This document shows, piece by piece, positions 12,080-42,284 of a stretch of 64,000 bases of DNA. The position numbers and the translations under genes were made by a program. The stretch spans positions 81,597-145,596 of the forward strand of contig PBHC01000005.1 of assembly GCA_002719295.1 (NCBI GenBank), read 5' to 3'. The number at the start of each line of letters is the position of its first letter. Within the stretch, counting starts at the first letter, position 1. Under the pieces are notes generated by a model. That model saw only the letters and a list, made by a program, of their open reading frames with translations, had not been told where the DNA came from and made no database searches. The stretch is from Chloroflexota bacterium. GTDB lineage: Bacteria; Chloroflexota; Dehalococcoidia; Lucifugimonadales; Lucifugimonadaceae.

Positions 12080-12931
12080 TTAGTTATCCTCTAAGTCTTT
12101 AAGAAAATTTTCAATTTCAGGAGGCAGATCAATTTCTTCTTTTTCAGAAGCTTCTATCTCAAATTGTTTTATCATTTCATTAACTTGATTGTTATTTTGT
12201 AGATTTTTGTGTATTTCAATATATTGATTTTCACCTTTTTTTCTTTCGGGAAAATCTTTTGAGAATTTATATATATGAGATAAGCTTTCTAACAATCTAG
12301 ATGTAGCTAGAAAATCATCTTCTAGTTTTACATAAAGAGGGATATGTACCATTAGGGATAATGTTTCTAAAGAGAGATCATTGTGTAAAATTTGTGATAA
12401 CTGTGAAGTCATACTTGTTGGTCCTGTATAATTTGATTTGTTTTTTAATGTTTCATTTAATGGTTCAGGTGGAATCCATCCTTTATAGCTTCCAGTGACG
12501 GGTAAAGGTTTAGTATGAGGTACAGAATCAAACATTCCTCCTATAGAAATATATCTTTTACCTTGAAGATTTTTAATTAAATCAACAATAGCTAAATTAA
12601 ATTCCTCTGCAAAATTATGAGGTTCCAAAAGATATAGTAAAAAAATATTTTGATCAGATTGATTTTTACTTCCGAAAATAACAGTATTAGGAATTCTGAT
12701 TTTTCTTTCACCATTTTCATTTAATAGTTCAGGTCTATAACGAGTCATATCATAATATTTACTAGGGTTCTTAAGCTTTCCAATTTCTTCAAGATTAAAA
12801 ATTTTTACTAATCTGCTAATTGTATGGTGACCAACATTCCCAACATTTATCCAAGGCCTAAGAATACTTATAAAATGACTATTTTTATAGTTTGATATAG
12901 GTATATTTAGTTCAAATTCTTTAATATTCAA
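12080..12931 (-). CDS. PAC2 family (proteasome assembly chaperone-like) protein
   Basis: W.N.G.VG, YYDMTRYRP, EP..F.EEF, GGMFDSVPHT, Y.GPTS and H.P.Y; ends EIENFL. Confidence 0.8.
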   Translation of the reverse strand: MNIKEFELNIPISNYKNSHFISILRPWINVGNVGHHTISRLVKIFNLEEIGKLKNPSKYYDMTRYRPELLNENGERKIRIPNTVIFGSKNQSDQNIFLLYLLEPHNFAEEFNLAIVDLIKNLQGKRYISIGGMFDSVPHTKPLPVTGSYKGWIPPEPLNETLKNKSNYTGPTSMTSQLSQILHNDLSLETLSLMVHIPLYVKLEDDFLATSRLLESLSHIYKFSKDFPERKKGENQYIEIHKNLQNNNQVNEMIKQFEIEASEKEEIDLPPEIENFLKDLEDN

Positions 12932-13018
12932 TTTATTTTATTTAATTCTTTTTTTAAAAATTTTACATATTTATATAATAAAAATAAATGTATCAAAAAT
13001 AAAAAATAAAAAAAGTTA

Positions 13019-13047
13019 TTGAAATAATTTTTTGATATCACTATTAT
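13019..13047 (+). promoter_or_regulatory. Sigma70-type promoter upstream of the structured intergenic element
   Basis: TTGAAA (13019-13024), 17 nt, TATTAT (13042-13047). Confidence 0.55.
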
Positions 13048-13053
13048 TTAATT

Positions 13054-13231
13054 GTAATGCTTATGCATTATTTAAATTTAAACAAGTATGAAAGGAGGAT
13101 ATTTTAATTGGAAACGAATAATAAGCGAGGTGCTCTTAACTGAAGGCGCCAAGAGGGTTAAGATACCTCCACTAAGAGTGAAATTATCCGGTAAGGTTTC
13201 TCCTTACCCGATAATTTCACTCTTAGTATTT
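13054..13231 (+). ncRNA. Candidate structured RNA or leader with micro-ORF (unassigned family)
   Basis: More GC-rich than its flanks. GGAGGATATTTTAATT and GAGGTGCTCTTAAC can both pair with GGTTAAGATACCTCC; long hairpin at 13171-13227. Confidence 0.55.
13171..13227. repeat. Long inverted repeat: 18 bp + 7 bp stem, C-C mismatch, 5-nt loop
   Basis: ACTAAGAGTGAAATTATC-C-GGTAAGG-TTTCT-CCTTACC-C-GATAATTTCACTCTTAGT. Confidence 0.95.
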
Positions 13232-13248
13232 AAAAAGAGATAAAAAAA

Positions 13249-13731
13249 ATGATTAGACATTTTACTTCTACTGTTTTTGTAGTATTTGAAAATAAAATAG
13301 CTTTGCATTGGCATGAAAAGGTCAACATGTGGTTACCTCCAGGTGGACATGTTGACAATAATGAAGATCCCATTCAAACAGCAATTCGTGAGTGTAAAGA
13401 AGAAATGGGAATTGATATATCTATATTTTCTGATAGCTCTTATAAATTTACTGATGATAATTTGAAAAATATTTATCCACCAGAAACGATACTTATAGAA
13501 AACGTAAATGATAATAAAACAGGACCACATCAGCATATCGATTTTATTTATTTTGGTTATCCTAACTATTCTAAGTTCGATTTAAATTCTGAATGGATTT
13601 GGGTAAATAAAAAAGATTTAATTAATGAAGTTGAATTTAAGAATCCATACTCGAAATATTTTCCACCACCTAATGATGTTAAAATTTTAGGTATTGAGGC
13701 GTTACTTAAATTAAAAAATCTGAACAAATAG
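13249..13731 (+). CDS. NUDIX hydrolase
   Basis: Nudix box GGHVDNNEDPIQTAIRECKEEMG; HFT.T and H.H.D. Confidence 0.92.
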   Translation: MIRHFTSTVFVVFENKIALHWHEKVNMWLPPGGHVDNNEDPIQTAIRECKEEMGIDISIFSDSSYKFTDDNLKNIYPPETILIENVNDNKTGPHQHIDFIYFGYPNYSKFDLNSEWIWVNKKDLINEVEFKNPYSKYFPPPNDVKILGIEALLKLKNLNK

Positions 13732-13764
13732 TTATTACTTGCTCAGATTTTTTAATTTATTGTT

Positions 13765-41934: not shown

Positions 41935-42274
41935 TAAAAGAAAGACGAGTGATCGCTGGCTTTGCCAGAGGAAAGTCCGAGCACCACTAGGATAAAGTGC
42001 CTGTTAACGGCAGGGCAGGGCAACCTGACGGATAGTGCAACAGAAAATATACCGCCATTATGGTAAGGGTGAAAAGGTAAGGTAAGAGCTTACCACAAAT
42101 TTGGTAACAAGTTTGGTATTGTAAACCCCACTTGGTGCAAGGCTAAATAGAGGAACGATAAGTTATCCTAGACAGTTCCCGGGTAAGCTGCTCGAGCTAG
42201 TTGGTGACAGCTAGCCTAGATGGATGATCACATCTACATATAGAAACAGAACTCGGCTTATAGTCTTTCTTTTA
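41935..42274 (+). ncRNA. rnpB: RNase P RNA (type A)
   Basis: GAGGAAAGTCC (CR-I), AGTGCAACAGAAA and ACAGAACTCGGCTTA (CR-V); terminal P1 helix TAAAAGAAAGAC/GTCTTTCTTTTA. Confidence 0.97.
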
Positions 42275-42284
42275 TCTTTATTTA

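Follow-up and report, generated by a model that had tools for sequence, protein, structure and literature searches.

A conserved structured RNA with a micro-ORF and mutually exclusive anti-Shine-Dalgarno helices in SAR202-type Chloroflexota, likely related to Ms_IGR-5

Leader-peptide attenuators of the trp/his type have a short ORF, a helix between the ORF and a downstream segment, and a terminal hairpin, and in type I toxin mRNAs a strong Shine-Dalgarno (SD) sequence is masked by an anti-SD within the molecule itself. The rreB RNA of Bradyrhizobium is 165 nt long, has 14 codons, binds 30S subunits and is weakly translated; its decay is start-codon-dependent, with the half-life rising from 10 to 37 min once the start is removed (PMC5711450, as far as its available text goes). 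Ms_IGR-5 (RF02471) goes by the name of 'Actinobacteria sRNA', and IGR-5 is ncMSMEG15794c of M. smegmatis (available text of PMC10454040), a validated, NAD-capped, uncharacterised sRNA (available text of bioRxiv 10.1101/2021.12.14.472595). The portions of these two sources that are available describe IGR-5 as functionally uncharacterised and mention no ORF, which the original IGR-5 paper or its supplements may nevertheless annotate. In the literature searched there was no account, in Chloroflexota, of the RNA described below.

The locus lies in a 317-nt gap between PAC2-family and NUDIX genes, within a window of 64,000 nucleotides (the whole stretch of DNA analysed). A sequence-only reading had placed there a promoter, two direct repeats able to pair alternatively with one downstream segment, and a 25-bp hairpin. 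Its coordinates for promoter, repeats and shared segment, and its gap length, all agree with direct reading of the sequence, and the tract is GC-enriched as claimed (GC 0.31–0.39 vs 0.08–0.17 just upstream). Constrained folding reproduced both the two mutually exclusive pairings and, after the anti-SD strand, the hairpin with its C.C mismatch (Table 1). The closed 11-codon ORF, the 5′ hairpin and the GGCGCC palindrome go beyond that reading, in which only the TTG had been named. The fold of 13054–13235 has an energy of −66.5 kcal/mol (z = −9.1), equalled by 0 of 200 shuffles. No second copy was found in the genome of the window (G000), so the tract is not a repeat. Judged from its sequence and that of its relatives, the unit is a real conserved structured RNA.

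Table 1. Positions, in the window, of the elements of the RNA and of the flanking genes.
Feature	Position	Strand	Remarks
PAC2-family gene	12080..12931	-	PF09754; divergent, directly adjacent in the window's genus
Putative sigma70-type promoter, TTGAAA-17-TATTAT	13019..13047	+	TTGAAA 13019-13024, 17-nt spacer, TATTAT 13042-13047
Conserved unit	13054-13232	+	Promoter upstream; 5′ hairpin, SD, TTG ORF, internal SD, anti-SD strand, 25-bp hairpin
5′ hairpin	13054..13071	+	Predicted by folding, at the putative transcript start
First SD, GAAAGGAGG	13090..13098	+	9 bp to 16S tail
Direct repeat 1, GGAGGATATTTTAATT	13094-13109	+	
Helix A, 5′ strand (SD, spacer, start)	13094..13109	+	15 bp with 13156-13170
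Micro-ORF, TTG..TGA	13108..13143	+	11 codons, METNNKRGALN
Internal SD-like GAGGTG	13127-13132	+	14 nt before stop
Direct repeat 2, GAGGTGCTCTTAAC	13127-13140	+	
Helix B, 5′ strand	13127..13141	+	14 bp with 13156-13169
GGCGCC palindrome	13145..13150	+	Post-stop loop; family-specific
Shared downstream segment (anti-SD strand), GGTTAAGATACCTCC	13156-13170	+	Common to helices A and B
3′ hairpin	13171..13227	+	25 bp, one C.C mismatch (13189/13209); terminator position
NUDIX hydrolase gene	13249..13731	+	PF00293; downstream in most genera of the window's family

All 12 other genomes of the window's genus carried the RNA, with 83–97% identity (the NUDIX protein being 51–78% identical). Model R1 found it in 113 of 151 genomes and 13 of 19 genera of the family, with no match in the 24 genomes of genera g5, g6 and g11, and model R2 in 72 of 151 genomes of the order (SAR202-type Dehalococcoidia), in one copy each and largely all-or-none by family. 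A pattern made for the other families gave 114 matches among species genomes; among the 80 listed, 78 had titles naming Dehalococcoidia, SAR202 cluster or Chloroflexota, and the other 2 had no score with R2, from which the order is taken to be SAR202. A separate, loose pattern search also matched controls in GC-rich genomes; being noisy, it was used for picking seeds only. Model R3 gave weak matches, at E ≤ 0.01, in 23 of 151 class and 48 of 151 phylum genomes (the latter including the unpublished G476), and its scores outside the window's family were 23–46 bits. Of 37 loci examined at class and phylum level, 36 showed, by eye, promoter-like upstream DNA, an SD, a short ORF and a terminal hairpin. 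Relaxed searches detected further divergent copies (L529, L531) in genomes first scored negative, so that the absences cannot be taken as shown. Roughly one in two of the SAR202-type genomes searched has retained a single copy; such retention implies selection, and it extends to the 1.3-Mb streamlined genus of the window.

Concerning the ends of the transcript, the promoter motif of the window is not by itself above chance (2 sites found vs 7.5 expected), but it recurs among relatives: it is kept in the homologues of the genus, and an exact TATAAT lies upstream of 63/65 other-family homologues (1/130 control windows) and of 16/26 homologues of the window's family (0/51 control windows). Folding predicts a 5′ hairpin for each of the 18 distinct genus leaders examined, although they differ in sequence. 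A U-tailed terminator follows 52/65 of the other-family homologues; in the window's family the U tail is weak (at least 5 T in 6 of 25 sequences), and no terminator was called at the 3′ hairpin of the window. The homologues probably constitute a stand-alone gene with its own promoter, yielding a putative RNA of about 175 nt. Word shares of 0.05–0.15 of 12700–13750 were obtained in 16 runs (13 of RNA, 10 studies); these are unaligned and no evidence of transcription.

Homologues were compared in alignment A4, the 97 rows of which were reduced to 92 distinct sequences (26 from the window's family and 66 from other families) by removing the doubtful L171, L226 and L227 and two duplicates; L170 was left out of the 65-row pair counts and L371 out of the class loci. 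Every one of the 92 has an SD followed by an ORF of 9–12 codons. The start codon is TTG in 72, ATG in 17 and GTG in 3, and the stop codon is TAG in 80, TAA in 9 and TGA in 3. The start lies 11–17 nt after GGAG, with seven different SD-start spacings; ORF lengths differ by whole codons only, and of 98 NTG triplets close to the SD, 96 share the frame of the stop. Pairing with the 16S tail, taken from the genome's own sequence, amounts to 9 bp in the window and to 8–13 Watson-Crick bp across the 92 homologues (up to 15 with wobble). The SD of the window ranks 6th of 2290 candidates with GGAG and a start in G000.

The two pairings put forward by the sequence-only reading fared differently when covariation was considered: helix B covaries throughout, and the 3′ hairpin covaries too, but helix A, where it extends beyond the SD core, does so only in the window's family. 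For helix B, 91% of cells are paired and 8/13 pairs show double changes. In a set of 24 sequences, the whole structure pairs 88% of cells vs 74% after shuffling and 46–51% after sliding, and helix B and the 3′ hairpin together show double changes in 21/26 pairs. For the extension of helix A in the window's family, own partners gave −14.2 vs −12.8 kcal/mol for swapped ones, 2/5000 permutations were as low and 7/26 sequences beat spacer shuffles, values which kinship among the sequences inflates, just as it makes the shuffle values in general too favourable. Outside the family it is unsupported (swap test 0.69; 2/66 sequences). Hence the SD-hiding helix stands, through coevolution, in the window's family, but not as a general feature. 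Within the genus (11 variants, 32 loci) one class has a matched one-base loss on both strands of helix A, which counts as a single event; the population values obtained for the two helices were specific to neither and were set aside. As a duplex, helix A is nearly as strong as helix B in the genus, and folding of the whole RNA predicts it as the resting state there, by about 5 kcal/mol. In folds with ribosome-footprint constraints, holding the SD region open gave helix B, and covering the stop region brought helix A back.

In the other families a near-invariant TAGGTGTTC at the stop (63/66 sequences) constitutes a third, post-stop repeat. Its pairing with the anti-SD strand, helix D, involves seven positions that are paired in 64–65 of 65 sequences, whereas at two of them helix B is paired in only 50/65 and 42/65. 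Because the 5′ strand of helix D is invariant, double changes are almost absent from it. Helix D is weak in the window's family (9/26 at p ≤ 0.05; 0 of 5 genus sequences). It seems reasonable to interpret that mutual exclusion is a family trait and that the alternative partner differs by lineage.

The internal SD is tied to the stop codon. GAGGTG occurs in 73/92 homologues and close variants in the remainder. In the other families (frame 2) the hexamer begins 13 nt before the stop in 66/66 sequences; in the window's family (frame 1) the distance is 14 nt for 22/26 and 17 nt for 4/26. At the wider class and phylum loci the distance is 12–15 nt in 30/37, mostly in frame 0; the other 7 lack the hexamer, 5 of them being of a type with the anti-SD inside the ORF. 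As background, 8/1136 long ORFs of G000, an AT-rich genome of 30% GC, have such a hexamer 12–17 nt before the stop. GAGGTG is part of the design of the covariance models, so that retrieval is biased toward the motif, and the fixed distance could follow from helix geometry, with the stop at the loop. On the other side of the helix, the anti-SD partner varies by wobble (13 variants) while the internal SD strand is nearly fixed, apparently more than pairing alone would require. A near-constant distance to the stop in differing reading frames indicates a constraint on the RNA and not on the peptide. In the GGAG register the internal SD is 11–12 nt from the last sense codon; the GGAG-to-start spacing in G000 is 9–12 nt in 171/238 cases. 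In vitro, an SD 9–14 nt before a stop slows mRNA release 50-fold, according to the available text of PMC5737721.

The suggestion that the RNA matches nothing known is not supported once its wider relatives are considered. Scanned against Rfam, the RNA of the window gave no gathering-level match and nothing plausible at E ≤ 10, only sub-threshold hairpin matches, and ten other-family loci gave only weak matches (e.g., BjrC68, 22–25 bits vs 39). RF02471 in particular had no match at E ≤ 10 among the window and nine family-level loci, so the RNA of the window is not filed as an Ms_IGR-5 member. A class-level homologue, L369, however, scored 66.6 bits on RF02471, above its cut-off of 45 bits, and L398 scored 27.2 bits; with R3 these loci score only 26.5 and 29.8 bits, respectively, and those scores rest largely on the SD and the terminator. 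None of 151 phylum genomes exceeded the 45-bit cut-off. The order of parts is the same, running from a strong SD and an NUG start through a micro-ORF with GAGGUG shortly before its stop to a partner strand and then a 3′ hairpin; as interpreted here, the Ms_IGR-5 consensus has a UUG start and GAGGUG 15 nt before UAG. The ORF and helix B are shorter here. The extended helix A, the GGCGCC palindrome and the C.C hairpin are specific to the window's family, and helix D to other SAR202 families. Altogether, the comparison makes homology of the SAR202 RNA to Ms_IGR-5 likely.

Among RNAs that have been studied, rreB appears to be the closest analogue, by description. The rreB/rreR RNAs of alphaproteobacteria are also about 165 nt long, with their own promoter and terminator, a weak start, variable gene context, a strong SD that the folded RNA partly hides and ORFs of 14–18 codons (available text of PMC5711450). 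A published analogue thus exists, and a stand-alone unit with a weak start and a micro-ORF is common to both. The 16S complementarity of at least 16 nt that characterises rre RNAs is not reached here (9 bp in the window, at most 13 Watson-Crick bp in homologues). In rreB it is 17 nt and the peptide is conserved, unlike the peptide here, and a second SD before the stop does not figure in the available description (PMC5711450).

We lean, on the strength of these sequence comparisons, towards reading the RNA as a mini-mRNA that is about 175 nt long, is of one kind with Ms_IGR-5 and rreB and would work through ribosome engagement and not through its peptide. A 30S subunit would dock on the first SD, in the window's genus displacing helix A first so that helix B can form, and the elongating ribosome would then melt helix B. 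Once the stop codon has entered the A site, the P-site codon would be 11–12 nt downstream of the internal SD, which is the normal SD spacing of this genome, and the internal SD could pair with 16S rRNA, making mRNA release slower. Meanwhile the freed anti-SD strand would take the first SD behind the ribosome (helix A) in the window's genus, blocking reloading, or the post-stop repeat (helix D) in other SAR202 families. The RNA would thus be a toggle operated by translation. From the switch first proposed this retains SD-like repeats that compete for one anti-SD strand and are linked to the micro-ORF, and drops the control of NUDIX or PAC2. As with rreB, the likeliest output would be the lifetime of the RNA itself or its hold on a ribosome; overexpression of rreB has no growth effect (available text of PMC5711450), an argument against bulk ribosome sequestration. 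A broader claim can be made only tentatively and may well fail: that there is a widespread class of RNAs holding one ribosome at the stop through a second SD at initiation spacing, while the anti-SD strand, once released, closes behind or ahead of the ribosome. If true, such a latch, operated by the ribosome, would sense termination or recycling capacity or else, in slow-growing bacteria, would park ribosomes, and the mechanism would be shared by Ms_IGR-5 and rreB-like RNAs. What is added here to a known, functionally unexplained RNA family are its SAR202 variants, the stop-anchored SD and evidence for strand exchange, with two testable predictions, namely an internal SD tied to the stop whatever the frame, and one anti-SD strand with up to three repeats.

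A trans-acting small RNA, in which translation would free the anti-SD strand, of CACCUCC type, or else the loop after the stop, to act on the SDs of other mRNAs or on a protein, is an unlikely alternative to ribosome engagement. The unit is stand-alone, its conserved anti-SD strand is normally hidden, and each lineage has an invariant loop (TAGGTGTTC in the other families, the palindrome in the window's). However, an anti-SD that tolerates wobble opposite a near-fixed partner is the reverse of what pairing with targets would lead one to expect, and the freed strand would be recaptured in cis.

The presence of the ORF in 92/92 homologues is also what would be expected if the peptide of 10–11 residues were the product and the folds merely kept its synthesis low. 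We consider this quite improbable, since the 92 sequences encode 78 different peptides, polar and unconserved, of 9–12 residues, and the conserved hexamer is read in three frames. Some regularity exists, as a Ser-rich start (D-S-S) recurs across the phylum and Arg-Gly or Gly-Gly occurs in the window's family, but the conserved serines are mostly encoded by AGT/AGC, which points to a nucleotide motif.

Equally improbable is a leader-peptide attenuator or 5′ leader controlling NUDIX. The NUDIX gene is downstream in 30/41 loci of the family examined, at 8–1235 nt. The 21 nt between 3′ hairpin and NUDIX start in the window, together with the weak U tail, favour read-through into NUDIX, which is plausible in the window's genus. 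SD-like motifs near stops have been reported for attenuator leaders (available text of PMC5737721), and the short ORF, its helix with a downstream segment and the terminal hairpin add to the likeness. Against this, NUDIX is absent downstream in genus g13, where a 113-aa ORF without Pfam match replaces it, and in the other families at the loci examined; in genus g17 a convergent DUF2267 ORF intervenes; and downstream of at least 36/66 other-family loci lies a convergent gene, either CinA-like or for a phosphotriesterase. Since downstream genes elsewhere are often convergent, the RNA is not a NUDIX leader. There is neither a consistent downstream gene, let alone a fixed co-oriented operon, nor a set of conserved control codons, the alternative helices are A and D instead of an antiterminator, and the NUDIX start region stays outside helices A and B and the 3′ hairpin in constrained folds. 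The attenuator or switch for NUDIX or PAC2 that had been suggested is thus given up, in view of the RNA's own promoter, its usual U-tailed terminator and its changing neighbours.

An untranslated structural RNA, such as a stand-in for 6S or SRP RNA with an incidental SD and ORF, would account for a 6S-like length and for the fact that 6S RNA was not found in G000 or 5 relatives, nor SRP RNA in 13 genomes of the genus. It is very improbable, as start, frame and stop are conserved. There is no match to RF00013, and the consensus fold has no 6S-like closed rod with a central bubble; RF00169 and RF01854 likewise gave no match. Ffh and FtsY were not found above cut-off in G000 either, this genome being 81% complete. 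The RNA has no tRNA-like ends or RF00023 match, and the tmRNA is located elsewhere (G000:C16:2322-2678), none being present in the window. Finally, a type I toxin mRNA, as the sequence-only reading had also suggested, or a metabolite riboswitch is hardly credible despite the strong SD with its same-RNA anti-SD and, in other families, the conserved 5′ domain with its GNNGAHAG loop motif, because the peptide is too short, polar and variable to be a hydrophobic toxin, the copy is single and chromosomal with no antitoxin seen, no Rfam riboswitch matched, and the 5′ domain is a plain hairpin in the window's genus.

Some further observations concern variation of the RNA. The 5′ domain of the other SAR202 families (L118-L125, L174-L235) is a stretch of 45–55 nt upstream of the SD, with a covarying closing stem and the loop motif invariant in 39 sequences; it has no counterpart in the window's genus. 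In a phylum variant (L375, L376, L385, L390, L392) the SD is doubled, the anti-SD is inside the ORF and there is no internal SD. The weak matches L226 and L227, of one family, have a 17-codon ORF with its stop 3′ of the anti-SD-like strand. The +2 frame contains a stop codon in all 92 ORFs and the +1 frame in 27, which may reflect the run of AGT/AAT triplets. Arg-Gly was considered as a stalling motif and rejected, the same bases being read as Arg-Arg-Cys or Glu-Val elsewhere.

Among 56 sequences of the window's family, the palindrome after the stop reads GGCGCC in 35 cases and GGTACC in 8 (carriers being genus g14 and part of g4), and the 13 sequences with none are all from genus g13 (L117, L143-L159), where a structured insertion of about 70 nt takes the place of the post-stop loop. 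The change between GGCGCC and GGTACC is a double one that keeps self-complementarity, and one genus variant has GGTGCC (loci of this variation: L133-L136, L142, L163-L165, L518); this suggests RNA dimerisation or a dyad-binding protein. The C.C mismatch of the 3′ hairpin is retained in 55/56 of these sequences while flanking pairs vary, and is a possible nuclease or protein site.

In a viral collection the SAR202 pattern had 0 matches, and a looser pattern had 105, with 39 of the 80 listed being one 66-nt match. These viral matches were rejected, as the match was inside an open frame, presumably terminase-like, in 9/10 examples, and 14 such loci had no R3 match. As regards gene context, the element L357 lies between Mur ligase and biotin ligase genes, and at many class loci the flanking ORFs are alike in size and strand. 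In two phylum genomes (L389:2176-2533 and L398:2303-2678) the homologue is 550–670 nt upstream of the tmRNA, on the same strand. The window also contains an RNase P class A RNA at 41937-42276 on the + strand, with a score of 305.6 bits.
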